64,000 bases of DNA from Deltaproteobacteria bacterium (GCA_016213015.1 JACRCE010000063.1:39-64038); one strand, 5' to 3'. Positions 73 through 51,217 are shown, counted from the stretch's first letter. The notes: generated by a model not told the origin, from the letters alone. Made by a program: numbers and translations.

Positions 73-95
73 TGCCTATTTACACACCTATTGAC

Positions 96-114
96 AAGAC
101 CTCCAATTTTTAGA
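96..114. repeat. Solo terminal-repeat-like copy (CCAATTTTTAGAGGCAATC) of the MITE-like element family seen at 7485-7698 and 21094-21392
   Basis: 16 of 18 identity to the reverse complement of the left terminus GTTGCCTCTAAAAATTGC of the full copies. Confidence 0.35.
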
Positions 115-712
115 GGCAATCTTCAAACCATGCCTTGAACTTTTTCAGCGCCTGCCCCCTGTGGCTTATCATGTTCTTCTCGTCAAGGCTTAATTGGGCA
201 ACTGTCTTTTGAAGGCTTGGGATGTAAAACACCGGGTCGTAGCCGAAACCGTTCGGCCCGGACGGAGCCTCGGCGATTGTTCCTTCAAGTGCGCCGTCAA
301 ACGTATGAACCGTTGCATCGGACTTGTCAGGCTTGGTAAACGCGACTACGCAGACAAAACGCGCTGTTCTTTTGCCGGGCGGGACCCCGGACAGCTCTGC
401 AAGGAGCTTCCTCCAATTATCCTCATCGGTTGCGCCCTCTCCGGCGTATCTCGCGGAATACACGCCGGGAGCGCCTAAGAGATAGTCAACCTCAAGCCCT
501 GAGTCGTCGGCAAGGCACTCGCACTGAAGAGCCTCGGCGACAAAGCGCGCCTTTGCAGTTGCGTTGGCCGCAAAGGTGGTCCCTGTTTCAGGCGGGAGTT
601 CAAGGATCGCAAAGTCGAGCATGGAGAGCACTTGGACCCCAGCGGGTTCAAGAAGCCTTTTTATCTCAGCGGCTTTGCCTTTGTTTTTCGTGGCAACGAC
701 AATCTTGTTCAA
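110..712 (-). CDS. rdgB: Non-canonical purine NTP pyrophosphatase (RdgB/HAM1 family, dITP/XTP pyrophosphatase)
   Basis: 200 aa. The N-terminal VVATKNKGKAAE, FGYDPVF, and the C-terminal RGQA motif and overall length match the Ham1/RdgB family. Confidence 0.9.
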   Translation of the reverse strand: MNKIVVATKNKGKAAEIKRLLEPAGVQVLSMLDFAILELPPETGTTFAANATAKARFVAEALQCECLADDSGLEVDYLLGAPGVYSARYAGEGATDEDNWRKLLAELSGVPPGKRTARFVCVVAFTKPDKSDATVHTFDGALEGTIAEAPSGPNGFGYDPVFYIPSLQKTVAQLSLDEKNMISHRGQALKKFKAWFEDCL

Positions 713-6900: not shown

Positions 6901-7472
6901 ACCTTGAGATACGCGGGGCGGGCGAGCTGCTTGGACAGGCGCAGGCCGGCCAGTTCGCGGACGTGGGCTTTGACATGTACGCGACCCTCCTTGAAGACGC
7001 GGTAAGGGAGTTGAGGGGCGAAGCGTTGCCCGACAGCAGCGAGCCGGACGTAAACCTGAGGGTGTCGCAGTATATACCCGAGGAGTACATCCCCGACGCA
7101 AGGGAGAGGCTCGGCCTTTACCAGAGGCTCTCAAGTATTGCGACGGACGACGATATATATCTCCTGAACGATGAGTTGAGCGACAGGTACGGGGACCCTC
7201 CAGCGCTCGTGGGCAACCTCCTTCGCACCGCTTCGTTAAGGATCGTCCTGAAGCGTCTCAAGGCAACGGAGTTCAAGCAGATAGGAGATAGACTGTATAT
7301 AACCTTTGCCAAAGGCGTTGGCCCGGAGATAGGCGATAGGGCGTTAAACCTCGTCAAGAAAGAACCAAAGCGATACAGGATAGCGCCGGATTCAAGGCTG
7401 ATAATCTCCATAGACAAGGACGCGGACCCGCTTGAGACGGCGAAATTTGTGTTGAAAGAGTTGGAGGGCTGA
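3951..7472 (+). CDS. mfd: Transcription-repair coupling factor Mfd (superfamily 2 helicase)
   Basis: 1173 aa. The UvrB-homology N-terminus, the RNAP-interaction domain, helicase motifs (GDVGYGKTEVA, DEEHRFGV, TATPIPRTL, QLRGRVGR) and the TRCF C-terminal domain are present. The true start may be the internal Met at about 3996. Confidence 0.95.
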   Translation: MLQKDTIESNDGPCSMKALLPRLIALGAFDRNEAVTVSVLFGSSKALLIASVFRGGAKPHLVILKDEEAASEMAVDLRFFLGKDSVLFYPSTETLPFELDPPHEDISAERVAALHSFTLGSSVVVVAAVSTLMQRLPPKADFTAKALNLRVGGEYPREALIETLSNMGYARMSMVEERAEMSARGGILDIFPPAKDRPLRLEFFGDELESIRSFDIATQRSLTELKEALILAAREASPDKEILSTARDRLIDRADALGLDRLSWEALSDRLKAGASGLGLSPLLPLLYDRLDTIFDYLGSNAVITVVDPEAVKTAAQGFAKDVSAIAAKAVEKRRFFAEPAELYISPDAFLKAINVFSLINVEPVMEAGFVIGASARLNIAMRHDLNVSIGGKGSTVLETPLAPLASMLKDRLEAGCRVWISAHNKGQAERTKELLEGYGLAVSQGFSFDVDPLNAPLGALCVVIGSITSGFYLEMDRFWLISEEEVFGERVKARTPPARKLDAFLRQLQELSDGDLVVHKDHGIGLCRGLKRLGIDDVENDFLLLEYRDGDKLYLPVWRLDLISRYKGSGGQTPELDKLGAKNWEKRKKKVGAAVERFAGELLNLYAQRQSAVGFSFSPPDRIFEEFEAGFDFEETPDQKNAIAETLADMRSDRPMDRLICGDVGYGKTEVAMRAAFKAALDNKQTAILVPTTILADQHFNTFSRRCAPFPVKIGVLSRFKTAKEQRETIASIALGEVDIVIGTHRLLQKDVTFKDLGLIVIDEEHRFGVAHKERLKHLRKNVDCLTLTATPIPRTLNLSIASIRELSIISTPPVDRLAIKTSVARFDPEIIAEALEREFKRGGQVFFVHNRVESIGAMERFLREVAPKARIAVAHGQMKEHELERKMLGFVNKDYDLLLCTTIIESGLDIPSANTIIINRADRFGLAELYQLRGRVGRSSHRAYAYLLCPDSGSMSADAVKRLEVIRELAEPGSGFSLASYDLEIRGAGELLGQAQAGQFADVGFDMYATLLEDAVRELRGEALPDSSEPDVNLRVSQYIPEEYIPDARERLGLYQRLSSIATDDDIYLLNDELSDRYGDPPALVGNLLRTASLRIVLKRLKATEFKQIGDRLYITFAKGVGPEIGDRALNLVKKEPKRYRIAPDSRLIISIDKDADPLETAKFVLKELEG

Positions 7473-7484
7473 TGCTATCCTAAT

Positions 7485-7698
7485 GTTGCCTCTAAAAATT
7501 GCTATTTTTTCCGATTTCGGCGTCAGGGCGAAAATAAAAATGCTCACATATTATCATATATGCTCCGCTTTTTATTTCCGCTTCCATCGCCCAGCACCAC
7601 TTTGGATTACGAAAGGATGTTGTTTCCCAAGTCTCTTCGTGCAACAAAGTGGTGCTGAGGCTTGAACTCGAAAAAACTATCTAATTTTTTGAGGCAAC
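7485..7698. mobile_element. MITE-like non-autonomous element, copy 1 (about 214 bp) with terminal inverted repeats GTTGCCTCTAAAAATTGCTATTTTT ... CTAATTTTTTGAGGCAAC and an internal hairpin (CGCCCAGCACCACTT / AAGTGGTGCTG)
   Basis: Shares its termini and internal blocks (GCTCACATATTA..TATATGCT.CGCTTTTTATTT, CCCAGCACCACTT) with the 21094-21392 copy. Intergenic between mfd and the surA-like gene, and no ORF with coding signal. Confidence 0.6.
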
Positions 7699-7709
7699 AT
7701 CGAGTGGCT

Positions 7710-15788: not shown

Positions 15789-17339
15789 ATGGTTTGCCCT
15801 CTAAAACTCTTTCGTCTTCAGTCTTCAGCCTTCAGTCTATCTACCTTCAGCCTAAACACCTTTATCCTTGCAATCGCGCTTTTTGCGGCTTCAACGGCCT
15901 TGGCGCAGGACGAGCCTCAAAGGAAGCCCTTGTCCCTGAGGGAAGGCGCCGCAGCCGTGCTGGAAAATAATCTCGATCTGATCGTCGAAAGGGTTGCGCC
16001 GCTCGTGGCCGCGCTTGACGTCGATTCCGCGCGCGCCGTGTACGACCCGGAGACCTTCACGCTGCTCAAACGCACAGAGGCAAAGACTCCTCTAAGCGCG
16101 CGTTCGCAAACCGCCGCTGGCGGGCTTTCTTCAAGCGAGTCGGAAGGATATACGCTTGAGGCCGGAGTGGAAGGCAGACTCGCGCTTGGCGCGAAATATA
16201 CGCTTGAGGTCAAGGAGGAGCGGACCGCCGACACCTTCAACAGATTCGAGCCGCAGTTTGCCTCGTTCGCCGGATTGAAGCTGACCCAGCCGCTGTTCAA
16301 GAACCTTGGCAGAGAGGCAACGGAATACCAGATAAACGTCGCCGGAAAAAACAGGGATATCTCCGTACACAAGTTAAAGGGCCGCCTCCTTGAAACCCTG
16401 TCCGAGTACTGCGGTGTCTACTGGGACCTCTTACAACTCAGGGAGGAGTTGAAGGTGCGGGAAGAGTCGCTGAGGCTCGCCGAAACCCTCCTTGAACTGA
16501 ATCGCAAAAAATTCAGGGCCGGCGTAATGTCGGCTCTCGACGTGAGCCACGCCGAGAGCGCCGCCGCGGCCAGACTCGATCAGGTGTTGATTGCGAGAAG
16601 GGGCGTTAAGGACAAGGAGGCGGCCTTGAAACTCCTCATATCCGGCGACGTCTATGGCATAAAGGACGTTGAACTGACGCCTTCCGAGGAGGCATCGGTG
16701 GAGCCTGTCGAGGCCAAGCTCGACGACGCGCTCAAGACCGCGTTTTCCAAGAGGCCCGACTATCTTGAGCTGAAATCCGAGATCGAAAAAAGCCGCTTGA
16801 GGATACGCTACGCCGAAAATCAAAGATACCCGCTCATCGACCTCGAGGCAAGCTACGGCTTTAACGGATTGGGGGAGACAGCGGGTCAATCATGGCGCTC
16901 CCTTGACTCCAATCCCGAATGGAGCCTTGGGGTGCGCTTCAAAATGCCGCTTGAGGGAACGGGCGCTCAGGCTGAACTCGCCGGTGCGCGGCTTGCCTCC
17001 TCTCAATCGCTTTTGAAGCTCAAAAGGCTTGAGCAGAGGACGATTATAAAGACCGACCTGATAATAAAAGACCTCAGGGACTGCTTGATAAGGGCCATGA
17101 ACGCGAAACGCTCCACCGCGCTGGCTAAAAACACGCTCAAGGCCGAGGAGGAGAAGTTGAACGCAGGACTGTCCACCACCTATTCGGTGCTCAAGGTTCA
17201 AGACGACCTTTCGATGGCGCGGCTCAACGAGATAGGCGCGTCGATAGACTACAACAAGACCCTTGTCCGGTATAATATGGAAAAGGGCACGCTGCTTGAG
17301 GCGCTTGGATTGAAGTTTGGCGACGAGACAGGCCGCTGA
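15789..17339 (+). CDS. TolC-like outer membrane efflux protein (OEP family)
   Basis: Signal peptide, then two tandem OEP repeats with alpha-helical and beta-barrel segments; 516 aa from ATG 15789. The longer ORF from 15480 overlaps the upstream gene and is not credible. Confidence 0.8.
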   Translation: MVCPLKLFRLQSSAFSLSTFSLNTFILAIALFAASTALAQDEPQRKPLSLREGAAAVLENNLDLIVERVAPLVAALDVDSARAVYDPETFTLLKRTEAKTPLSARSQTAAGGLSSSESEGYTLEAGVEGRLALGAKYTLEVKEERTADTFNRFEPQFASFAGLKLTQPLFKNLGREATEYQINVAGKNRDISVHKLKGRLLETLSEYCGVYWDLLQLREELKVREESLRLAETLLELNRKKFRAGVMSALDVSHAESAAAARLDQVLIARRGVKDKEAALKLLISGDVYGIKDVELTPSEEASVEPVEAKLDDALKTAFSKRPDYLELKSEIEKSRLRIRYAENQRYPLIDLEASYGFNGLGETAGQSWRSLDSNPEWSLGVRFKMPLEGTGAQAELAGARLASSQSLLKLKRLEQRTIIKTDLIIKDLRDCLIRAMNAKRSTALAKNTLKAEEEKLNAGLSTTYSVLKVQDDLSMARLNEIGASIDYNKTLVRYNMEKGTLLEALGLKFGDETGR

Positions 17340-17342
17340 CAA

Positions 17343-17470
17343 AAGCGCATCTGCTTTGTTGTCTCGTCGCTCCTCAACTAGCGACGCACAACAAAGTGCG
17401 TCTTGTATTCGTCGCTTCCCTATTGCATAGGGGCCGCGCATCTGCGGCTTTTTGAGCGGCCTGTTTGAAA
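17343..17470. repeat. REP-like intergenic element, copy A (GCATCTGCTTTGTTGTCTCGTCGCTCCTCA ... GCGCACAACAAAGTGCG ... TTCGTCGCTTC ... GCATCTGCGGCTTTTTGAGCGGCC)
   Basis: Nearly identical to 38166-38280. Both copies lie immediately 3' of outer-membrane protein genes. An internal inverted repeat TTTGTTGT/ACAACAAA is present. Confidence 0.55.
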
Positions 17471-18715: not shown

Positions 18716-19453
18716 ATGAAAAAATATTCGAAGGCGCCCATTGAAGAGGCCGTTTTTGACATCAAAATAGACCCTGCCCTATCTATTGAAGGCAAGGATT
18801 TGGAGTCCTTGTACACAAAGGTTTCAGACCGCTATCCTATAAAGGAAATTCTAAGAACATCCGAGGTAATTAGTGAAGTAAAGGATGGAGAATTAGCAAA
18901 TGTTCAGGCAAGAAGCAAGGGAGTGGTGGGTTTTCGTTTTTGGGATAAAGAACGTAAGCAGGTATGCAATTTCGGATTGGACGGTTTCAATTTCAGCCGT
19001 TTGAGGCCATATAGCGGATGGGAAGACTGTTTTCCAGAGGCGATGAGATTATGGGGTGTTTATAAAGCGGACTTCAACCTCCATCATATCAAGCGGGTCG
19101 CCGTTCGATTCATCAATATTATCAAAATTACGGAAACTCGATTTGAACTTGCCGATTATTTTAATAACCCGCCAGCCCCCCCGACAGGGCTTCCGCAGGA
19201 TTTGACGGAATTTTTTTCACGTTTAAGAGTACGATATGAGGACGGTTATTTTGCAATTATTACCCTTGCCATACAAATGCCCGCTGAGCCAAATACCGCC
19301 TCGATACTGTTGGACATAGACGTATGCACGGAGACGCCTTTTGAAGCGGTTGATGAAGGCCGGCTTGAAAAAATCTTTGAACGCCTCCGGCATATCAAAA
19401 ATGATGTCTTTGATAAGAGCATCACACAAAAAACCAAGGAACTCATAAAATGA
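18716..19453 (+). CDS. Hypothetical protein, first gene of a low-GC three-gene cassette (the N-terminus KAPIEEAVFDIKID is reminiscent of the uncharacterised TIGR04255-type family)
   Basis: 245 aa; GC is visibly lower (about 42-45%) than the flanking genes; its stop overlaps the next start (ATGA). Confidence 0.55.
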   Translation: MKKYSKAPIEEAVFDIKIDPALSIEGKDLESLYTKVSDRYPIKEILRTSEVISEVKDGELANVQARSKGVVGFRFWDKERKQVCNFGLDGFNFSRLRPYSGWEDCFPEAMRLWGVYKADFNLHHIKRVAVRFINIIKITETRFELADYFNNPPAPPTGLPQDLTEFFSRLRVRYEDGYFAIITLAIQMPAEPNTASILLDIDVCTETPFEAVDEGRLEKIFERLRHIKNDVFDKSITQKTKELIK

Positions 19454-19947
19454 TAGACATGGCGCTTGTCCAAGTTGCTTTTAACCGTGACAATGCAAGA
19501 CCTGTAGTTGTTTGCGAAGCGGCAAAAGGAACCAACGACGAGCTTTTCCGTAGCGCGTTCCTTGACACGCCTTCAATACTCTTTAGCTGGCGTTTAAGGC
19601 TTAAAAACAGGATATACACCTTAGCTAAGGACTGTTCTTCCGAAGGGTGGAATGGCGAGGGCGCTTTTCCTATGTCAAGTGAGGCGATTAACGCGGCCGA
19701 GCGTTTTATAGACCTTTTGCCGGAAGGCGTTATGGAACCGTCCATCACCGTTGAAAACACAGGCGATATGGCATTCGATTGGGACATCGGAGCGGATATG
19801 ACCTTTACCGTTATCGTATCAAGAGACCGCGCCGTTTATGCCGGTATATTCGGCGATTCAAGACGACGCGGCACGGAAAGGATTCACAGCGAACTCCCCG
19901 GCACAATCAAAGACGTGCTGTTGGCGTACTTTAGAAAGAAAACCTGA
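19450..19947 (+). CDS. Hypothetical protein, second gene of the cassette
   Basis: 165 aa, translationally coupled on both sides; no recognisable motif. Confidence 0.5.
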   Translation: MIDMALVQVAFNRDNARPVVVCEAAKGTNDELFRSAFLDTPSILFSWRLRLKNRIYTLAKDCSSEGWNGEGAFPMSSEAINAAERFIDLLPEGVMEPSITVENTGDMAFDWDIGADMTFTVIVSRDRAVYAGIFGDSRRRGTERIHSELPGTIKDVLLAYFRKKT

Positions 19948-20369
19948 TGCCCGAACCCGCTCTTTCCTTAAAGGAGCCGGTTGAAGACGATGAGGCCATT
20001 TCCAGGTTTTTAACCGATGAAGATTCATTTTATCGGAAGACGGAAAGGGTTCATCACTCGGCCTTTAAGCTCCCGCGAGGGCACAACGCCATCTCCGTAT
20101 ATCGCACAAAAGATATGGTTGACCGCGCGATATGGGATATGGCGCGAAGATTTGTTACGGAACTCAGACCTGACCGCAAAGAGGTCTTGGCAAGGGCGGA
20201 ACTTAAAGCCGGCGACTATAAAGGGCTTCATTTAAAGTTTAGCTGGGATGGAAAACCGCATCCGAGGCATGTGAATATCGAAGGGTGGCCTTCAAGCGTA
20301 GAAGACATGCTTGCAGTAAGAAAAGAGCTTGCAAACAAAGCCCGCCTGATCAGCAAATCGGCAAATTAA
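19947..20369 (+). CDS. Hypothetical protein, third gene of the cassette
   Basis: 140 aa, start overlapping the upstream stop (TGATG); basic, with conserved-looking His/Arg patches (ERVHHSAFKLPRGH, PRHVNIEGWP) of unknown meaning. Confidence 0.5.
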   Translation: MPEPALSLKEPVEDDEAISRFLTDEDSFYRKTERVHHSAFKLPRGHNAISVYRTKDMVDRAIWDMARRFVTELRPDRKEVLARAELKAGDYKGLHLKFSWDGKPHPRHVNIEGWPSSVEDMLAVRKELANKARLISKSAN

Positions 20370-20435: not shown

Positions 20436-21092
20436 ATGATCGAGCTTATTGACATCAAAAAATCATACCGCATGGGGGCATCGTCGGTCGACGCCCTCAA
20501 GGGCATAAGCCTTGTTGTCAAGAAGGGCGAGTATGCGGCCATAATGGGGCCTTCGGGCAGCGGCAAGTCTACCCTAATGAACATCATCGGTTGCCTTGAC
20601 AGGCCCACTCACGGCTCTTACACGCTCTCTGGGGTAAGGGTGGACGCCATGACCGAGGACGAGCTTGCCCGGCTGCGAAACACGCACATCGGCTTCGTTT
20701 TCCAGACCTTCAACCTGCTTTCAAGGCACACGGCGCTTGAGAACGTGGAACTGCCTCTGCTGTACGCGGGAGAGGCCGATACCGAAGGCCGGGCAATGGC
20801 CGCGCTTGAGGCAGTGCGGCTTGGGGCGAGGGCCGGACACAGGCCCAATGAGCTTTCAGGCGGAGAGCGCCAGAGGGTCGCGATCGCCCGGGCGCTTGTT
20901 TCAAACCCGTCTATAATACTAGCGGATGAGCCTACCGGAAACCTCGACAGCGTCAGCGGCGCCGAGATACTCAGGATATTCGACGAACTTCACGCCAACG
21001 GCGCGACCATCGTCCTCGTTACGCACGACGCGGACGTCGCCGGAAGGACCCAAAGGACCATAACCATCCGCGACGGCTTGGCAACGGTTTGA
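20436..21092 (+). CDS. macB: ABC transporter ATP-binding protein (MacB/LolD-type ATPase)
   Basis: Walker [13 protein letters not shown] signature LSGGERQR and Walker [12 protein letters not shown]; start at MIELIDIKK. Confidence 0.9.
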
Positions 21093-21093
21093 G

Positions 21094-21392
21094 GTTGCCT
21101 CTAAAAATTGCTATTTTTCCCGATTTCCTTGTCATGGCAAAAATACACCGGTTGCCCGTCGGCTTGCGCCCAGCACCACTTCGTGCCGAAAAAGTGTATC
21201 GTTTGACAAGTCTCGTATTGCGAAGTGGCGCTGGGCGCAATAAGACGGGCTTCAAAGAGAGCGTGAGCTTCCTTACCGGGGCTAACCGCGCTTTTGCGGT
21301 TGGCCCAATGCTCACATATTAGTGTATATGCTACGCTTTTTATTTTTGCCCTTCCTCGAACTCGGAACAACTTTCTAATTTTTAGAAGCAAC
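21094..21392. mobile_element. MITE-like non-autonomous element, copy 2 (about 299 bp), with the same terminal inverted repeats as 7485-7698
   Basis: GTTGCCTCTAAAAATTGCTATTTTTCCCGATTTC at the left end and CTAATTTTTAGAAGCAAC at the right; the internal CGCCCAGCACCACTT ... AAGTGGCGCTGGGCG hairpin. Inserted between the ATPase and permease genes of the macB system. Confidence 0.6.
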
Positions 21393-21414
21393 CTTGAAAT
21401 GATAGGGATTAGTT

Positions 21415-22840: not shown

Positions 22841-23704
22841 ATGAAGATACCGGTTGAACTATTGCTCGGCGACTGCAAAGAGGCGCTCAAAAACCTCTCC
22901 GATGATTCAATAGACCTGATATTCACCTCTCCGCCCTACGCCGACAGCCGCAAAAACAGCTACGGCGGAATTCATCCTGATAGGTACGTTTCATGGTTCC
23001 TGCCGGCATCGAAGGAGTTGTTAAGGGTCTTAAAACCGGCGGGGACGTTTGTCTTAAACATAAAGGAAAAGGTGGTTGAGTCCGAACGCCACACCTACGT
23101 CTGCGAACTGATACTTGAGATGAAAAAACAGGGATGGCTTTGGACCGAAGAGTTCATCTGGCACAAGAAAAATTGCTACCCCGGCAAATGGCCCAACAGA
23201 TTTCGTGATTCATGGGAGAGGCTTTTGCAGTTTAACAAGCAAAAGAGGTTCAACATGTATCAGGAGGCCGTCATGGTTCCGACTGGAGACTGGGCAAAGG
23301 ACAGGTTAAGGAATCTGAGCGAAACCGACAGGACCCGCGATAATGCTAAAAACGGCAGCGGATTCGGAAAAAACGTTTCCAATTGGCTCAACAGGGACAG
23401 GGCATATCCAACGAATGTCCTGTATCTGGCGACCGAGTGCGGCAATAAAAACCATAGCGCGGCATTTCCCAAGGCGCTTCCCGAATGGTTTATAAAACTT
23501 TTCACAAAGCAGGGAGATTCGGTGCTCGACCCCTTCATGGGTTCGGGAACAACCGTGCTCACGGCATGCGGCATGAACAGGAGGGCAATCGGGATTGAGA
23601 TTCACCCGCAATACTATAAATCCGTTCAAAACATGCTGAGTCTGCAAAAAAAAACCGCGCCGGAAAGAGCCAATGAGAAGATCCAGATCGCTCTCTTTAG
23701 ATGA
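22841..23704 (+). CDS. Site-specific DNA methyltransferase, beta-class (N4-cytosine or N6-adenine), of a type II restriction-modification system
   Basis: Catalytic motif DLIFTSPPY near the N-terminus and AdoMet motif VLDPFMGSGTT near the C-terminus. Confidence 0.85.
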   Translation: MKIPVELLLGDCKEALKNLSDDSIDLIFTSPPYADSRKNSYGGIHPDRYVSWFLPASKELLRVLKPAGTFVLNIKEKVVESERHTYVCELILEMKKQGWLWTEEFIWHKKNCYPGKWPNRFRDSWERLLQFNKQKRFNMYQEAVMVPTGDWAKDRLRNLSETDRTRDNAKNGSGFGKNVSNWLNRDRAYPTNVLYLATECGNKNHSAAFPKALPEWFIKLFTKQGDSVLDPFMGSGTTVLTACGMNRRAIGIEIHPQYYKSVQNMLSLQKKTAPERANEKIQIALFR

Positions 23705-24434
23705 CATAACGGCCTATGTTAAAAAGAACGTGGGGGTGTTTCATGAAAACCGCCTGCGGAGTCTTCAAGGTTTGAAGCTGAATAGTGTAATCCCTCGGAA
23801 AAACCCATACCTTTTCAAAGCCAAGCATATCCTGAGCGCGAACGATTTTGTAAAGCTGATACTTGACGCGCATCTGTCATCGCAGGAAGAAACCATATTT
23901 GGAGACTTTCTCGAAGGTCTGTCCATCCATGTTTGCAGTAAGGTTTACGGCGGCAGGAAATCTTCCGCCGAAGGCATTGATTTGGAATTGGAAAAGGGCG
24001 GCAATAGATATATAGTGGCCATAAAATCCGGGCCTAACTGGGGAAACAGCTCTCAAATAAGAAAGATGCGGGAAGATTTCAAACGCGCAAAAAAGATTAT
24101 AAGGACCTCCGCGCCGTCAACGGCCGATGAAAACATCGTGGCCGTAAATGGCTGCTGTTACGGCAGGGACTCATCCCCGGACAAGGGCGACTATTTCAAG
24201 CTCTGCGGTCAGAGATATTGGGAGTTTATCTCCGGACGCTGTGATTTATTTACGACGATAATCGAGCCGCTTGGCGCCAAGGCTAAAGAGAAAAACGAGA
24301 AGTTCGTACGCGCCTACTCAAGGATGATAAACAAGTTTACCGCATCGTTTATACGCGATTTTTGCATAGACGGACGGATAAACTGGGAAGGCATCGTGAA
24401 GTTTAACTCGGCGGTTGAAAGATCGGATATTTAG
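23673..24434 (+). CDS. Putative cognate type II restriction endonuclease (PD-(D/E)XK-like)
   Basis: 253 aa overlapping the methyltransferase gene by 32 bp; a candidate PD...(D/E)xK core GIDLELEK; lower GC than the backbone. Confidence 0.5.
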   Translation: MRRSRSLSLDDITAYVKKNVGVFHENRLRSLQGLKLNSVIPRKNPYLFKAKHILSANDFVKLILDAHLSSQEETIFGDFLEGLSIHVCSKVYGGRKSSAEGIDLELEKGGNRYIVAIKSGPNWGNSSQIRKMREDFKRAKKIIRTSAPSTADENIVAVNGCCYGRDSSPDKGDYFKLCGQRYWEFISGRCDLFTTIIEPLGAKAKEKNEKFVRAYSRMINKFTASFIRDFCIDGRINWEGIVKFNSAVERSDI

Positions 24435-26220: not shown

Positions 26221-29061
26221 ATGCCCTTATCGTTAAACGAAATCAAAGACCGGGCGAACGCCTTCTCCCGCGAGTGGGAGGGCGAACGTTCCGAGAAGGC
26301 CGAGGCCCAGACCTTCTGGAACGATTTTTTCAACGTCTTCGGCGTAACAAGGAGGCGCATAGCGAGCTTTGAAGAGCCGGTTCAACGGGCGAGGAGTCGT
26401 TTTGAGGCAACGGGCGGAAAAGGCGGCTTCATAGACCTTTTCTGGCGCGGTACGCTTATCGCCGAGCACAAGTCTCTGGGGCGCGATCTCGACTCCGCTT
26501 ACAAGCAGGCGCTTGAATACTTTGAAGGCCTCCCAGACCGCGATCTGCCCCGCTACGTCATAGTGTCGGACTTCGCCCGCATCCGTCTTTACGACCTCGA
26601 TACCGGCAAGCACGATGAACTGCCGCTCAAAGACCTGTACAAGCACATAAAGCTCTTCGGTTTCATCGCGGGCTATGCCACGCAACGGATAACGGCGCAG
26701 GACCCGGTGAACGTCAAGGCCGCCGAGCGCATGGGAAAGCTCCATGACCGCTTGCGCTCCGCCGGTTATGAGGGGCACGTCCTTGAAGTGCTCTTGGTGC
26801 GCCTCTTATTCTGTCTCTTTGCCGAGGACACCACGCTCTTTGAGCCGCTGGGTTCGTTCCGTGATTTTCTTGAGAATAACACAAGCGAAGACGGCGCGGA
26901 CTTGGGGCCGCAACTATCGCTTCTCTTTCAGGTGCTCGATACCGTTGAGGGCAAACGCCAGAAGGGGCTCGATGAGACGTTCGCCGCGTTCCCTTACGTG
27001 AACGGGCGGCTCTTTGAAGAGACTCTTCCCATATCCGCATGCGACAAGACGATGCGCGCCCTGCTCCTCGACTGTTGCGGCCTCGACTGGGGGCGCATAT
27101 CTCCTGCCATATTCGGCGCGCTATTCCAGTGCGTCATGGACGAGGAAGGCTCTGCCCGGCGAAGAAACCTCGGCGCGCACTACACCAGCGAAGAGAACAT
27201 CTTAAAGCTCATCAAGCCCTTGTTCCTCGACGGCCTTTATGCCGAGTTCGAGGCCGCAAGGCGCAACACCAACAAGCTCTTTGATCTGCACAAAAAAATA
27301 TCGCGCTTGAAATTTCTCGATCCCGCCTGCGGGTGCGGAAACTTCCTTGTCATCGCTTACCGCGAATTGCGATTGCTTGAGCTTGAAATCCTCCGCTCCG
27401 TCCGCGCAACGGGTCAGAGGCATATTGATATATTCCAGCTCGTGCAGGTGAACGTGAACCAGTTCTACGGCATAGAGATAGAGGAGTTCCCGGCCCAGAT
27501 CGCGCAGGTCGCGCTCTGGCTCACGGACCATCAGATGAACATGCGCGTTTCCGAGGAGTTCGGCCAGTACTTCCGCAGACTGCCGCTCGTCAATTCGGCC
27601 TCCATCCGTTGCGCCAACGCCCTGCAACTGGACTGGAACGAGGTAATATCCGCTGAGCGGGTGGACTACATACTCGGCAATCCGCCGTTCGTGGGGTCTA
27701 AATTCCTGAACGACTCGCAACGCGAGGACATGGAGCTTGTGTTCGGCAAGGTCAAGGGCGCGGGCGTGCTTGATTATGTTACGGCATGGTATATGAAGGC
27801 CACGCATTATTTGCGCGGCGACGATAAGATTGACGCGCTTCTCGATAATATGCCGTCAGCGCGCAAACCTCCTCGCGAGCGGGTAAAGGTCGCCTTTGTC
27901 TCGACAAACTCAATCACGCAAGGCGAACAGGTGGGCGTAATATGGTCGGAACTGTTAAGGCTTGGGGTAAAAATCCATTTTGCCCATCGCACATTCAGTT
28001 GGAGCAACGAGGCGCGGGGCAAGGCGGCTGTACATTGCGTGATCATCGGTTTTGCCTTGCACGATACCGCCAAAAAGGTTATCTACGATTATGAGGACAT
28101 CAAGGGCAATGCCCATGCCTTGGAGGCGGGGAATATCAATCCGTATCTGGTGGATGCGGTGGATATGGTTTTGGAAAAACAAACAAAACCAATATGCACA
28201 GTACCGGAAATGAAATTTGGAAATCAGCCTATTGATGGCGGCTTCTTACTATTCACTTCTGAAGAAAAAGTAGCCTTTGTAAACGAAGCACCTACTGCTA
28301 AAAAATACTTTAGGCGATTTTTCGGGGCCGAGGAATTTATTAATGGCATTGAACGCTGGTGTCTTTGGCTCAAGAATGCAAAACCTGAAGAATTGCGCGA
28401 GATTCCAGCTATTATGAATAGATTGGAGAAGGTGAGACAATTTCGACTTTCAAGTAAACGTCCCGCGACAAACGCTCTCGCCTCAACACCGACATTGTTT
28501 GCCTTTATCTCCCATCACGAGGGAAAATATCTTCTTGTCCCAAGTGTTTCTTCCGAACGCCGTGCTTATATTCCCATCGGTTTCATGTCGTCAGAGGTAA
28601 TCGCCAGCAATCTGTGTCTTATCATCCCAAATGCCACGCCCTTCCATTTTGGTATTCTCACTTCCGCCATGCACATGGCTTGGGTGCGTCAAGTCTGTGG
28701 GCGGCTTGAAAGCCGTTATCGCTACTCGGCTCAAATCGTCTACAACAACTTCCCGTGGCCGGACAACCCCACGGACAAACAGCGCAAGGCCATTGAACAG
28801 GCCGGTCAAATCGTGCTCGACGCCCGCGCCAAACACCCCGGCTCTTCGCTCGCCGACCTCTACGACCCGGTTGCCATGCCGCCGGATCTTCGCAAGGCGC
28901 ACCAGACGCTTGACAAGGCGGTTGACGTTGCTTATGGCAAAAAGACCTTCACCTCCGACGCCGAGCGCGTTGTCTTCCTCTTTGAGCTTTACCCCAGATA
29001 CACAAGCCTGTTTCCCGGCCCAAAGGTTCGGAAGAAACGCGGAAAGAGTGCGTTGAAGTAG
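26221..29061 (+). CDS. MmeI-family type IIL single-chain restriction endonuclease / N6-adenine DNA methyltransferase
   Basis: 946 aa. The N-terminal D-x9-E-x-K nuclease motif (IDLFWRGTLIAEHK), the central gamma-class methyltransferase with NPPF (LGNPPFVGSKF) and the C-terminal target-recognition region have MmeI-like architecture and length. Confidence 0.8.
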   Translation: MPLSLNEIKDRANAFSREWEGERSEKAEAQTFWNDFFNVFGVTRRRIASFEEPVQRARSRFEATGGKGGFIDLFWRGTLIAEHKSLGRDLDSAYKQALEYFEGLPDRDLPRYVIVSDFARIRLYDLDTGKHDELPLKDLYKHIKLFGFIAGYATQRITAQDPVNVKAAERMGKLHDRLRSAGYEGHVLEVLLVRLLFCLFAEDTTLFEPLGSFRDFLENNTSEDGADLGPQLSLLFQVLDTVEGKRQKGLDETFAAFPYVNGRLFEETLPISACDKTMRALLLDCCGLDWGRISPAIFGALFQCVMDEEGSARRRNLGAHYTSEENILKLIKPLFLDGLYAEFEAARRNTNKLFDLHKKISRLKFLDPACGCGNFLVIAYRELRLLELEILRSVRATGQRHIDIFQLVQVNVNQFYGIEIEEFPAQIAQVALWLTDHQMNMRVSEEFGQYFRRLPLVNSASIRCANALQLDWNEVISAERVDYILGNPPFVGSKFLNDSQREDMELVFGKVKGAGVLDYVTAWYMKATHYLRGDDKIDALLDNMPSARKPPRERVKVAFVSTNSITQGEQVGVIWSELLRLGVKIHFAHRTFSWSNEARGKAAVHCVIIGFALHDTAKKVIYDYEDIKGNAHALEAGNINPYLVDAVDMVLEKQTKPICTVPEMKFGNQPIDGGFLLFTSEEKVAFVNEAPTAKKYFRRFFGAEEFINGIERWCLWLKNAKPEELREIPAIMNRLEKVRQFRLSSKRPATNALASTPTLFAFISHHEGKYLLVPSVSSERRAYIPIGFMSSEVIASNLCLIIPNATPFHFGILTSAMHMAWVRQVCGRLESRYRYSAQIVYNNFPWPDNPTDKQRKAIEQAGQIVLDARAKHPGSSLADLYDPVAMPPDLRKAHQTLDKAVDVAYGKKTFTSDAERVVFLFELYPRYTSLFPGPKVRKKRGKSALK

Positions 29062-38151: not shown

Positions 38152-38165
38152 GAAGGCCGCTGAAA

Positions 38166-38280
38166 AAGCCGCATCTGCTTTGTTGTCTCGTCGCTCCTCA
38201 CTGAGGCGCACAACAAAGTGCGCCTCATTCGTCGCTTCTCGCCGCCTCGCATCTACGGCTTTTTGAGCGGCCATCGTCAG
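38166..38280. repeat. REP-like intergenic element, copy B (same family as 17343-17470)
   Basis: GCATCTGCTTTGTTGTCTCGTCGCTCCTCA...GCGCACAACAAAGTGCGCC...TTCGTCGCTTCTCGCC...GCATCTACGGCTTTTTGAGCGGCC, immediately 3' of bamA. Confidence 0.55.
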
Positions 38281-39912: not shown

Positions 39913-39940
39913 AGGCCGTGACCGCGAACCGTGACCGTGA
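39913..39940. repeat. CCGTGAC/GTCACGG heptamer repeat cluster (GGCCGTGACCGCGAACCGTGACCGTGA)
   Basis: Tandem or near-tandem heptamers directly after the lpxD stop; same family as 45281-45343, 51134-51217 and 62340-62400. Confidence 0.4.
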
Positions 39941-39963
39941 AAGACGTAAGGAGACATCTCGCT

Positions 39964-45280: not shown

Positions 45281-45343
45281 TCCATTGACCGTGTAAAAGA
45301 AAAATCTTTTCACGGTCACGGGTCACGGTCACGGGTCACGGTT
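45281..45343. repeat. Heptamer-hairpin element: CCGTGTAAAAGAAAAATCTTTTCACGG followed by (GTCACGG)x4
   Basis: An inverted repeat with an A/T-rich loop, then a four-fold tandem heptamer; lies between lpxB and msbA. Confidence 0.5.
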
Positions 45344-45348
45344 TATAA

Positions 45349-47115
45349 ATGAACACCTATATCCGTCTCCTCAGACTCCTGCCGCCGTACAAGGTAACGC
45401 TGTTTTTCGCGTTCCTCTGCATGGTGGGCTTTGCCGCGTCCAACGGGGCAATGGCCTACCTCATCGGCCCTGTCATGAAGTTTTTGTTCGCCTCGGACAA
45501 CGGGAAGGGCATTAAGCTCATCCCTTTTGACATCATGATCGTGTCAAAGGAAAACATGCTCGTCGCCATCCCGATAGTCATAATCATCGTCGCAATCGTC
45601 AAGGGCCTGAGTTCCTACGGGCAGTCTTACTTCATGGGATATGTGGGGCAGGGCGTGGTTCGGGACATAAGGAAGCGGCTCTACGAACATATACTGAGCC
45701 TGCCGACCGGCTACTTCACGGCAAACCCGACCGGCATCCTGATATCGCGTCTCACCAACGACGTAAACCTTCTGCAAACGGCCACGTCAGAGGCCATAGC
45801 CACGGTCTTGAAGCAGAGCCTTACCATCATCGTCCTTGCTGGCGTGGTTATAAGCCTTGACTGGAAACTTGCGCTCGCGGCCTCGGTCGCGCTCCCGCTC
45901 TCGGTCTATCCAATGAGGCAACTCGGCAAGCGGATGAAGCGCATCTCCACGCGCGGGCAGGTGAGCATGGGCGCGATGACCACGCTCCTGCATGAGGCCA
46001 TAGCCGGCATAAGGATCGTCAAGGCTTTTTGCATGGAGCGATATGAAGCCGGGCGTTTTCATAATGAGAACGAGCGCTACAACAGGAACATAATAAAGCA
46101 GATAACGGTAAGAAGCATCTCGTCCCCCTTGATGGAGACGCTCGGCGCGGTGGGCTTTGCCGTTACGATATGGTACGCGGCCCACAGGATCAACGCCGGG
46201 ACCCTACAGCCCGACACTTTCATATCCTTTTTTGCGGCGGTCATCATGTTCTACCAGCCCATAAAGGCGTTGAACGGCGTAAACATGTACATACAGCAGG
46301 GCATGGCCGCGGCGGACAGGGTCTTTAACGTCATTGATACACCCTCGGAGGTTGACAAGAAGGAAGGCGGCGTTCCGATAACCGGCCTGCTCGACTCGGT
46401 GGAGTTTAAGAAGGTCTCGTTCAAATACGGCGGCAACTGGGTGCTCAAGGAGTTAGACCTCAAGGTCTCGAAGGGCGAGGTGCTTGCGATAGTAGGTTCG
46501 TCGGGAGGCGGCAAGACCACGTTCGTTAATCTCATACCGCGCTTTTACGACGTGAGCGAAGGTGCGATCCTGTTCGACGGAGTTGACCTGCGCGAGATAA
46601 GGCTTGCCTCGTTGCGTTCGCAAATCGCCTTGGTATCCCAACAGGTGGTGTTGTTCAACGACACGGTTAGGAAAAATATAGCCTACGGCGACATCGAGAT
46701 AAGCGATGAGGAGATGATAAAGGCCGCCAAGGCCGCCAATGCCCATGATTTTATTTTGAGACTGCCTGATGGGTATGATACCGTTATCGGCGAAGGCGGG
46801 GTGCGTCTATCAGGCGGCGAGAGGCAGAGGCTCTCCATAGCCCGCGCCATATTGAAGAACGCGCCGGTGCTGATACTTGACGAGGCGACGAGCGCCCTTG
46901 ACACGGAAAGCGAGCGCGAGGTGCAAAAGGCGCTCACGAATCTCATGGAGGGGCGCACGACCTTTGTGATAGCCCACAGGCTCTCCACGGTGAGGAACGC
47001 GGACAGGATAATCGTCCTCGGGGGAGGCGGCATAAGGGAGATGGGCGCTCACGACGCGCTCCTGACAAAGGGCGGCGAGTACGCGAGGCTGTATTCGCTC
47101 CAGTTCAACGCATGA
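45349..47115 (+). CDS. msbA: Lipid A export ABC transporter MsbA (fused permease/ATPase)
   Basis: 588 aa with six TM helices and the NBD motifs [17 protein letters not shown] and ILDEATSALD. Confidence 0.9.
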   Translation: MNTYIRLLRLLPPYKVTLFFAFLCMVGFAASNGAMAYLIGPVMKFLFASDNGKGIKLIPFDIMIVSKENMLVAIPIVIIIVAIVKGLSSYGQSYFMGYVGQGVVRDIRKRLYEHILSLPTGYFTANPTGILISRLTNDVNLLQTATSEAIATVLKQSLTIIVLAGVVISLDWKLALAASVALPLSVYPMRQLGKRMKRISTRGQVSMGAMTTLLHEAIAGIRIVKAFCMERYEAGRFHNENERYNRNIIKQITVRSISSPLMETLGAVGFAVTIWYAAHRINAGTLQPDTFISFFAAVIMFYQPIKALNGVNMYIQQGMAAADRVFNVIDTPSEVDKKEGGVPITGLLDSVEFKKVSFKYGGNWVLKELDLKVSKGEVLAIVGSSGGGKTTFVNLIPRFYDVSEGAILFDGVDLREIRLASLRSQIALVSQQVVLFNDTVRKNIAYGDIEISDEEMIKAAKAANAHDFILRLPDGYDTVIGEGGVRLSGGERQRLSIARAILKNAPVLILDEATSALDTESEREVQKALTNLMEGRTTFVIAHRLSTVRNADRIIVLGGGGIREMGAHDALLTKGGEYARLYSLQFNA

Positions 47116-50270: not shown

Positions 50271-51155
50271 ATGTTGCCCATCGCCAAACTCATAGCCTTT
50301 ATCATCGGCCATCTGCCGCTTTGCCTCGTTCGCGTTCTCGGCAAGGCGCTTGGCCGTATTGCTTTTCGTTTCGACAAACGACACGCGAAGACCGCGCTTG
50401 AAAACATGACTCTGGCGTACAAGGGTTCGCTGAGTGAAGACGCCATGACCACCATTGCCCGCGGCGTCTTTGAAAATCTTGCCATAACCGGCCTTGAGTT
50501 CATGAGGATACCGTGGCTCACGAAGACCGGTCTCAACGGTTACGTGGAGTTCAAGGGCATTGAAAATCTCGAAAGGGCGCTTGAGCGCAAGAAAGGCGCA
50601 ATCCTTTTTACCGCGCACTTCGGAAACTGGGAGCTTATGGCCGCGGCTTACGGCCTTTCGGGCTTCCCGATTGACATAGTGGTGCGCGAGCTCGACTCTC
50701 CGGTTGCCGAGGCATTTACAGCGTGGGTCAGGATTGCCTCCGGTAACAGGCTCGTTGAAAAAAACAGGTCAATGCGAAAGCTCATCAAGACGCTCTCCGT
50801 GAACGGCATCGCGGGAATCCTGCTTGATCAGAACGTGGCGGACGTGGAAGGCGTGTTCGTTGATTTTTTCGGCACAAGCGCATGCACCAACAAGGGCCCG
50901 GCGTTGCTGGCGCAGATGACCGGGGCCGCAATGCTGCCGACCTTTATCGTCAGGCACGGGAAGGGACACACGATAGTCGTCGGCGAGCAGGTGGAGCTTA
51001 TCGATACCGGAGACAAACACGCCGACGCAATCGAGAACACGGCCAGATGCACGAAAATAATCGAGGGGCAGGTCAGGGCGCATCCTGAGCAGTGGTTCTG
51101 GGTGCACAGGAGGTGGAAGACGAGGCCGTCAAAAGCCGTGAACCGTGAACCGTGA
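50271..51155 (+). CDS. lpxL: Lipid A biosynthesis late acyltransferase (LpxL/HtrB/LpxM family)
   Basis: HFGNWE catalytic motif; 294 aa. The C-terminal residues KAVNREP are encoded by the CCGTGAA heptamer repeats. Confidence 0.8.
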   Translation: MLPIAKLIAFIIGHLPLCLVRVLGKALGRIAFRFDKRHAKTALENMTLAYKGSLSEDAMTTIARGVFENLAITGLEFMRIPWLTKTGLNGYVEFKGIENLERALERKKGAILFTAHFGNWELMAAAYGLSGFPIDIVVRELDSPVAEAFTAWVRIASGNRLVEKNRSMRKLIKTLSVNGIAGILLDQNVADVEGVFVDFFGTSACTNKGPALLAQMTGAAMLPTFIVRHGKGHTIVVGEQVELIDTGDKHADAIENTARCTKIIEGQVRAHPEQWFWVHRRWKTRPSKAVNREP

Positions 51156-51217
51156 CCGTGAAAAGATAAAGACCGGAGAACGTGCAAAAAATTTTTTTAC
51201 GGCCACGGACACGGCCT
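51134..51217. repeat. Heptamer-hairpin element: (CCGTGAA)x2-CCGTGACCGTGAAAAG ... TTTTTTTACGGCCACGGACACGGCC
   Basis: Tandem heptamers overlapping the last codons of lpxL, with complementary copies about 50 bp downstream; same family as 45281-45343. Confidence 0.5.

Follow-up and report, generated by a model that had tools for sequence, protein, structure and literature searches.

A superfamily of whole-length-palindrome, MITE-like repeats in uncultured Deltaproteobacteria

Several kinds of dispersed repeat described in bacteria resemble the repeats that we report here. Correia elements (NEMIS), found in Neisseria, duplicate TA. ERIC sequences (IRU) are reportedly (Sharp and Leach, 1996; Wilson and Sharp, 2006) lengthened by internal insertions of ~70 bp and shortened by deletions. 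REPs, to our knowledge, have no target duplication, and we know of none that is left by HUH single-strand transposition. REPs are units of 20–40 bp with GTAG or CGTC tags (PMC3733652). Chunjie, from Geobacter uraniireducens, is 178–235 bp long, with 21-bp TIRs and 9-bp direct repeats (PMC3184786), and sigma-70-like promoters, together with an IHF site, are known from Correia elements (PMC10969869). Compared against a generic definition of bacterial MITEs (PMC3184786), the element described here shows inverted repeats, flanking direct repeats, small size, no transposase gene, and dispersed filled and empty sites. The kind is familiar (bacterial MITE, ERIC-like), but the family is new and amounts to a small superfamily.

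In architecture and behavior, the element most resembles ERIC. Both ERIC / IRU (~127 bp) and the element are imperfect palindromes along their whole length and are similar in size; both are non-coding and intergenic, often lie at the 3' ends of genes, and form a long RNA hairpin; and both combine a short target duplication and high conservation between species with the lack of an identified transposase (PMC3184786, PMC10969869). They differ in host, the element occurring in uncultured Thermodesulfobacteriota rather than in Enterobacteriaceae or Vibrionaceae; in flank, which is a 4-bp TNNA for the element and has been reported as a TA motif for ERIC (PMC3184786); and in that the center of the element, not its ends, is most conserved. 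A plasmid collection rich in enterobacterial DNA contained no match to the element, and no similarity to E. coli-type repeats was seen. The element therefore falls outside ERIC / IRU on host, on sequence (as judged from the plasmid search), and on the TA flank. Correia elements are likewise MITEs, of 100–160 bp, with long inverted ends, positioned between genes, co-transcribed with their neighbors, and present or absent at the level of strains (PMC10969869, PMC3184786). In contrast to them, the element has TNNA as its target, is unrelated in sequence, and contains no promoter-like consensus. Chunjie shares with the element an A+T-rich composition, a deltaproteobacterial host lineage, intergenic and operon positions, a very stable fold, a variable size, and many partial copies (PMC3184786, PMC10969869); at ~140 bp, palindromic throughout, and with a 4-bp duplication, the element is not a member of that family. 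REP / REPIN sequences, which are mobilized by RAYT, are also hairpin-forming extragenic repeats with conserved paired structure. By contrast, the ends of the element, (A)GGNNNCC, are untagged, a duplication is present, and no ORF in the window has a Pfam match to RAYT.

The window, i.e., the whole 64,000-nt stretch of DNA that was analyzed, has two full copies and one remnant of the repeat (Table 1). An 18-nt end motif, GTTGCCTCTAAAAATTGC, allowed up to three mismatches, matches the window five times, whereas 0.03 matches are expected from shuffled sequence and none of 100 shuffles gave five. BLAST aligns the two copies in three blocks: the left end (7485–7536 with 21094–21145, 88%), an A/T block (7539–7577 with 21307–21345, 90%), and the right end (7661–7698 with 21355–21392, 84%). 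A further hairpin, CCCAGCACCACTT...AAGTGGTGCTGGG, is found in both copies. A first-pass annotation of this DNA had proposed two copies with shared end repeats, a hairpin block, and an A/T-rich block; the BLAST blocks (84–90%), the excess of end motifs, and the coordinates of the hairpin arms bear this out. Its boundaries (7485–7698 and 21094–21392) also hold, except that the best boundaries lie one base further out on each side. It was right that the ends are inverted, although not in giving them ~25 bp: the left end aligns with the right end in reverse complement for ~57 nt at 79%, such that the inverted repeat spans the whole arms (~55–60 nt). The repeat strings that it quoted are hybrids of copy 1 and copy 2 sequences; the right end of copy 1 is ...CTAATTTTTTGAGGCAAC and that of copy 2 is ...CTAATTTTTAGAAGCAAC. 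The permease encoded 3' of copy 2 is of the MacB/FtsX type.

Table 1. Coordinates of the element, its parts, and the related family F2 in the window.
Feature	Coordinates	Strand	Description
Remnant of the element	91..120	+	arm end with internal deletion (TTGACAAGACCTC-CAATTTTTAGAGGCAAT); motif match 103-120
Copy 1	7484..7699	+	216 bp; mfd stop codon (7470-7472) to start of SurA-like gene (7710)
Central core of copy 1	7540..7568	+	ATGCTCACATATTAnnnTATATGCTsCGC; tip of the long hairpin
Hairpin module H in copy 1	7582..7660	+	stems 7590-7602, 7647-7659; profile gap 101/107; -39.4 kcal/mol, z = -7.2
Left target-site duplication of copy 2	21089..21092	+	TTGA; includes ATPase stop codon TGA
Copy 2	21093..21393	+	301 bp; ABC ATPase stop codon (21090-21092) to start of MacB-type permease gene (21415)
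Nested insertion in copy 2	21146..21306	+	module H (21154-21250) and hairpin with 10-bp stem (21280-21305)
Central core of copy 2	21308..21336	+	A/T block shared in BLAST; core pattern; core conservation
Right target-site duplication of copy 2	21394..21397	+	TTGA
CCCAGCACCACTT hairpin arms, copy 1	7590-7602/7647-7659		
CCCAGCACCACTT hairpin arms, copy 2	21169-21181/21223-21235		
End-motif matches	7485, 21094	+	
End-motif matches	103, 7681, 21375	-	
F2 copies	17330-17462; 38154-38272		ends AGGCCGCTGAAAAAGC...GCTTTTTGAGCGGCCT

The two copies differ in length and in the apparent order of their blocks, which had been read as decay. A nhmmer profile built on canonical 140-bp copies (see below) indicates a different origin. 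In copy 1, model positions 3–101 correspond to 7483–7581 and positions 107–144 to 7661–7698, with a 79-nt insertion past position 101, in the right arm. In copy 2, positions 2–56 correspond to 21091–21145 and positions 59–145 to 21307–21393, with a 161-nt insertion past position 56, in the left arm (profile gap 56/59; −58.4 kcal/mol, z = −8.1). One hairpin, module H, is common to the two insertions; in copy 2 it includes an inverted repeat (21154–21183/21221–21250) that is 87% complementary. The copies differ in length and order because module H sits in opposite arms, i.e., it is nested on either side of the center; there has been no rearrangement or decay of blocks. The arms of both copies still pair around module H, with folding energies of −78.5 kcal/mol for copy 1 (z = −8.9) and −128 kcal/mol for copy 2 (z = −9.4), and module H alone also folds stably (z = −5.7 to −8.1). 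A third example of module H, at locus L024, occupies yet another position in the element. The idea that module H is an independent dispersed repeat was dropped, as it was found only within copies of the element. Other nested sequences are also seen: the left arms of three copies (L020, L028, and L036) contain a different module of ~70–85 nt, GCGCAGGGCCAAA...GCCCGTCCGGC, and two copies (L039 and L052) of subfamily B (see below) carry a CCCGAT-AAAA-ATCGGG mini-hairpin.

The remnant, next to the rdgB stop codon, had been described as a solo end at 96–114. It is indeed a fragment of the family; rather than a solo end, it is a deletion remnant spanning ~91–120 and overlapping the end of rdgB (110–712, minus strand). 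Comparable deletion derivatives occur at L022:12930–12981 and L023:6958–7000. The last three codons of rdgB and its TAA stop codon come from the remnant, whereas in a relative (L078) the remnant is absent and RdgB is 10 residues longer. The remnant has, in other words, re-coded the RdgB C-terminus.

The element extends well beyond this genome. A degenerate pattern of the ends, run on a genome collection, gave mostly chance matches and two true loci (L004 and L014), both in the MAG “Deltaproteobacteria bacterium H52-bin143_1”. One of them (L004) is a 140-bp version consisting of left arm, A/T block, and right arm, without the hairpin module; at the other (L014), the contig begins within an element, a typical assembly break at a repeat. 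The exact left-end 20-mer had no match in a metagenome collection; the lineage of the window has a GTTGCC...GCTA variant of the element end. The central pattern CTCACATATTANNNTATATGCT matched 55 metagenome stretches, nearly all of which are the 140-bp unit. In total, the element is present in at least 50 metagenome contigs and one related MAG. The canonical unit is a single imperfect palindrome of ~140 bp along its full length, without coding capacity, and has the layout (A)GG-NNN-CCTCTAAAAATTGCTCTTTTTCC, left arm, core (ATGCTCACATATTAnnnTATATGCTsCGC), right arm, GAAAAAATATCTAATTTTTAGAGG-NNN-CC(T), with GGNNNCCTCTAAAAATTG as the terminal box. In the units extracted from metagenomes, the arms flank the core and the outer ends are (A)GGNNNCCTCTAAAAATTGCTCTTTTTCC on the left and GAAAAAATATCTAATTTTTAGAGGNNNCC(T) on the right. 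A nhmmer profile built from 26 copies and searched against 455 kb of these loci plus the window gave 82 non-overlapping matches, 51 of them full length, representing 38 unique full-length copies. The profile orients the element unambiguously (~140 bits forward vs ~40 bits reverse), and copies can be as dense as three in 14 kb.

Between the metagenome loci and the window, the element is 83–98% identical while its flanks have no DNA similarity, and the one ortholog common to both is 49% identical in protein sequence. All hosts checked are, from the names of their proteins, uncultured “Deltaproteobacteria”/Thermodesulfobacteriota, including relatives of GWB2_55_19 and GWA2_55_10. The element has spread through uncultured, sulfate-reducer-like bacteria. 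The proposal of a novel element family stands, with the amendment that the family is wider than one genome, as the same 83–98% nucleotide identity is reached in distantly related hosts. ORFs across the copies are short, mechanical ones only. Nothing similar to the element was found among viral contigs, plasmids, or phages. Rfam 15 gave no match in the window at the gathering threshold, and a permissive search with the canonical copy gave, at best, a plant miRNA model (E = 0.27; 18 bits vs a threshold of 249). Scans for sigma-70 promoters and intrinsic terminators detected no such consensus inside the element, and full-text literature searches with strings of its sequence returned unrelated papers only. 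Two loci (L027 and L051) have identical right flanks and different left flanks, reflecting either a chimeric assembly across the repeat or recombination of one copy with another.

Target-site duplication was assessed for 21 copies, with the ends set as GG...CC, using 20,000 permutations. An exact 4-bp TNNA direct repeat surrounds 6 of the 21 copies (7 when copy 2 is correctly registered), against an expectation of 1.3 (permutation p = 0.0017), and 58 of 84 flank positions match, a number reached by none of the permutations. The two central bases are variable; flanks include TTGA, TCAA, TAAA, and TTAT. An exact duplication is kept in only about one-third of copies, and the flanks of copy 1 differ from each other (CTAA / TCGA). 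A TA or 3-bp TNA duplication was rejected, the best register being 4-bp TNNA or, equivalently, 2 bp in a T..A context. Insertion into a pre-existing palindromic target, under which the variable termini would belong to the host, was also dropped, since three empty sites have no such palindrome. The element inserts in a 4-bp TNNA target, mostly TTGA or TTAA, and duplicates it.

Close relatives provide direct comparisons of filled and empty sites. The site of copy 2 is empty in a relative with a 94% identical permease (L071), where 18 nt separate the ATPase and permease genes: ...ACGGT TTGA CAGGTTAAGGAG... in the relative, compared with ...ACGGT TTGA [GGTTGCC...GCAACC] TTGA AATGAT... in the window. 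In another relative (L078), the same junction reads TTGA GGCAGCC TTGA, i.e., two targets around a 7-nt terminal remnant, or footprint. TTGA thus occurs once in L071 and twice where it surrounds copy 2 or the L078 footprint. For the ATPase gene, L071 and L078 are closest to one another (93% nucleotide identity), with the window as the outgroup (88–90%). The three junctions therefore represent empty, footprint, and filled states of one site. At the site of copy 1, the mfd/SurA-like junction of L078 is 17 nt long, with TTAA at the corresponding point. Similarly, a strain pair (loci L041 and L047) with 97% DNA identity differs by one 145-bp copy, the empty allele reading TTC TAAA AGGATG and the filled allele TTC TAAA [GGCTACC...GGCAGCC] TAAA AAAGG. 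The element is polymorphic between close strains, can be lost leaving a footprint, and gathers nested insertions and deletions. The expectation that further copies and target-site duplications would be found (at least 50 copies and the 4-bp TNNA duplication) has been confirmed and, with the empty sites in relatives, so has the description of a dispersed, non-coding, inverted-repeat family. The ATPase–permease junction is a hotspot, with the footprint at L078:20560–20612 and a different palindrome at L075:9866–10000; in the latter relative (69% permease identity), this ~95-bp palindrome begins with a stop codon in TGAAAAAGC.

Since TGA and TAA stop codons fit TNNA, the upstream gene very often has the element directly on its stop codon. 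Where the two are co-oriented, a median of ~2 nt lies between stop codon and element, against ~70 nt between element and next start codon. Orientation relative to genes is ~2:1 (21 vs 11 including duplicates, ~18 vs 9 unique, based on greedy gene calls), which is not significant; a strict orientation, suggested by agreement among the first four cases, was abandoned with this larger set. Some insertion sites are inside operons, where the element parts genes that in relatives adjoin or overlap.

No copy of the element is present in two sets of syntenic relatives covering 92 kb (L071–L077) and 46 kb (L078–L081). These relatives also differ from the window in other respects. In the window, three ORFs (18716–20369), one encoding a TIGR04255-family protein and two without a family match, separate the efflux fusion-protein gene from the ABC ATPase gene; these flanking genes are adjacent in L072–L078, so this segment is a window-specific insertion. 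Two restriction-modification systems (22841–24434 and 26221–29061), one with an N6/N4 methylase and an EcoO109I-type endonuclease and the other an MmeI-like fused enzyme, occupy a region where the syntenic relatives have a histone-deacetylase-family gene beside the permease gene. Elsewhere in the window, short intergenic runs of the heptamer CCGTGA(A/C), at 39916–39942, 45304–45334, and 51142–51167, lie just upstream of a fabZ-like gene, an ABC exporter gene at 45349, and a nucleotidyl-transferase gene, respectively, in a lipid A gene cluster, and a common regulator could act at these runs. Three tandem 153-bp repeats (2451–2828; 64–79% identical) lie in or beside an ORF with a weak match to the PA5033 family.

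The canonical copy folds as a single long hairpin, with −53.5 kcal/mol as RNA (z = −7.6) and −29.1 kcal/mol as DNA (z = −5.6). Across 38 copies, 92% of cells in the 51-pair hairpin are paired. The arms covary: 13 pairs have changes on both sides, compared with 7.7 ± 1.4 in shuffles, of which 0 of 500 reach 13, and sliding the partners as a control gives 6–9 pairs. Some covarying pairs are 30–55 nt from the element ends. Examples include columns 33/119 (UA 20, CG 14), 50/102 (CG 15, UA 10), 56/97 (AU 31, GC 5), and 6/148 (GC 16, CG 8). The outermost 7 bp vary yet stay complementary, e.g., GGGTGCC/GGCACCC, GGCTGCC/GGCAGCC, GGTTGCC/GGCAACC, and GGCCACC/GGTGGCC. Conservation was also measured by region in nine copies that had been retrieved without the core pattern, and rises from 70% at the termini (70–75% for the outermost 7 bp) to 87% in the mid-arms, 96% in the AAAAATTG boxes, and 97.5% in the core stems. 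Conservation of the center over the termini is the opposite of what simple recognition of termini by a transposase predicts, and transposase binding alone leaves the internal covariation of the arms unexplained. RNA of the reverse strand folds more stably in all 38 copies (−59.1 vs −45.7 kcal/mol); because the copies share ancestry, this asymmetry is one inherited observation rather than 38.

The core (~30 nt) is found letter for letter in two further groups with arms different from those of subfamily A, namely subfamily B, at six loci, and subfamily C, at two. The arms of subfamily B are, in turn, homologous to those of a second palindromic family, F2, which has a different center, a GC-rich hairpin. 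F2 has two copies in the window (Table 1) and is also present at L019, L022, L043, L045, and L059, on the same metagenome contigs as the element studied here. The F2 copy at 17330 provides the TGA stop codon (17337–17339) of an outer-membrane-factor gene and parts it from a fusion-protein gene; the two genes overlap in L078.

Considering all of this evidence, we think it likely that these repeats belong to a non-autonomous transposable element, namely a bacterial MITE whose palindrome spans its whole length. The MITE model does not explain why subfamilies whose arms are unrelated have a core in common, or why module H is confined to the element. In another reading, the element would be a mobile hairpin that depends on its structure, with the apical core as determinant, as opposed to a classical MITE recognized by its TIRs; this reading draws on the 97.5% conservation of the core, its identity in subfamilies A, B, and C, and the arms common to subfamily B and F2. 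The arms would need only to pair, which would explain why they covary and why the termini vary yet stay complementary, and centers and arms would be exchangeable modules of a palindromic superfamily, with the core read by an enzyme or a host factor. We regard this as unlikely. In a rival model, a structure-specific enzyme of the REPIN/RAYT or IS200/IS605 kind would move the hairpin in single-stranded form, recognizing the pairing of the arms and the conserved core at the apex instead of terminal sequence. Significant covariation of the arms, including at internal positions, would fit such an enzyme, as would termini that vary while remaining complementary, a core that is the best-conserved part and common to subfamilies with unrelated arms, and the stable fold of the single-stranded DNA (z = −5.6). 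The 4-bp direct duplication around the element speaks against it, as does the form of the unit, one 140-bp palindrome instead of a pair of 20–40 bp REPs; moreover, the ends have no conserved GTAG or CGTC tag, and no RAYT or TnpA-like gene is found among the 59 ORFs of the window. On balance, single-strand mobility is quite improbable.

Very improbable, in our estimation, is a functional structured RNA or regulatory cassette that is under host selection (for example, a 3'-UTR stabilizer, an RNase target, or a protein-binding site), with mobility incidental or ancient. In its favor, the hairpin is preserved by compensatory changes, the core is near-invariant between hosts with only ~49% identical proteins, copies usually lie directly 3' of stop codons, and the reverse-strand RNA is the more stable in 38 of 38 copies; this last count reduces to a single observation through shared descent. 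Such a cassette would have to be reconciled with a presence that varies between 97%-identical strains, with absence from the 92 kb and 46 kb of syntenic sequence of close relatives, and with the existence of deletion derivatives and a footprint. The element also breaks up operon junctions at which the genes of relatives are tightly spaced or overlap, and it occurs in both orientations to genes (~2:1, not significant), Rfam has no match to it, and there is no promoter-like or terminator-like consensus inside it. As for a local regulatory duplication, or chance similarity, confined to this genome, its only attraction is that the 64-kb window has just two full copies. It is refuted by the core pattern, the profile search, and the duplication test, and we give it practically no credence: at least 50 further copies exist in unrelated genomic contexts, five end motifs are observed where shuffles give 0.03, and target duplications and empty sites were found. 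An integron attC origin was rejected on reading the sequence, as the polarity of the end motif is reversed (GTT...AAC on the outside, not AAC...GTT) and the genes on either side have housekeeping roles.

If the repeats are MITEs, a transposase encoded elsewhere would mobilize them in trans. The first-pass annotation noted that the window has no transposase, and Pfam scans of its 59 ORFs agree; with NCBIfam added for unassigned ORFs, these scans contained neither a transposase nor an autonomous partner with matching ends. The search that it recommended for a transposase with matching TIRs was equally negative for the 455 kb of related loci and for plasmids, phages, and viral contigs, none of which yielded an autonomous partner, and an all-against-all comparison of the loci gave syntenic duplicates only, with no IS-like repeat. 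With neither the window nor the 455 kb of related loci yielding a transposase, the mobilizing enzyme is something that we infer, and a trans-acting DDE transposase is pure conjecture. As a first guess, suggested by the 4-bp TNNA duplication and the GG...AAAAA ends, the enzyme may be IS5-family-like. These ends and the 4-bp T..A target presumably resemble those of IS5/IS903, which we take to have GG... ends and a YTAR-like duplication. Once inserted, copies later take nested insertions such as module H, undergo internal deletions, or are lost almost completely, leaving a footprint. Read-through transcripts would carry the long hairpin, which, by analogy with ERIC and Correia elements, probably alters the stability or processing of neighboring mRNA.

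With these repeats, the GWA2_55_10 / GWB2_55_19-like Thermodesulfobacteriota, an uncultured lineage that has been poorly studied, gain a well-defined superfamily of MITEs. The family affects genome assembly, since one MAG contig breaks inside the element. In the window, copy 2 separates an ABC ATPase gene from that of its permease and, because the element inserts on stop codons and inside operons, it probably affects translational coupling and mRNA fate. For the biology of mobile DNA, the inverted pattern of conservation, the covariation of the arms, and the apparent exchange of centers between subfamilies are testable oddities, and interest in the element would rise if the core proves to be a determinant of mobility or of a host function.
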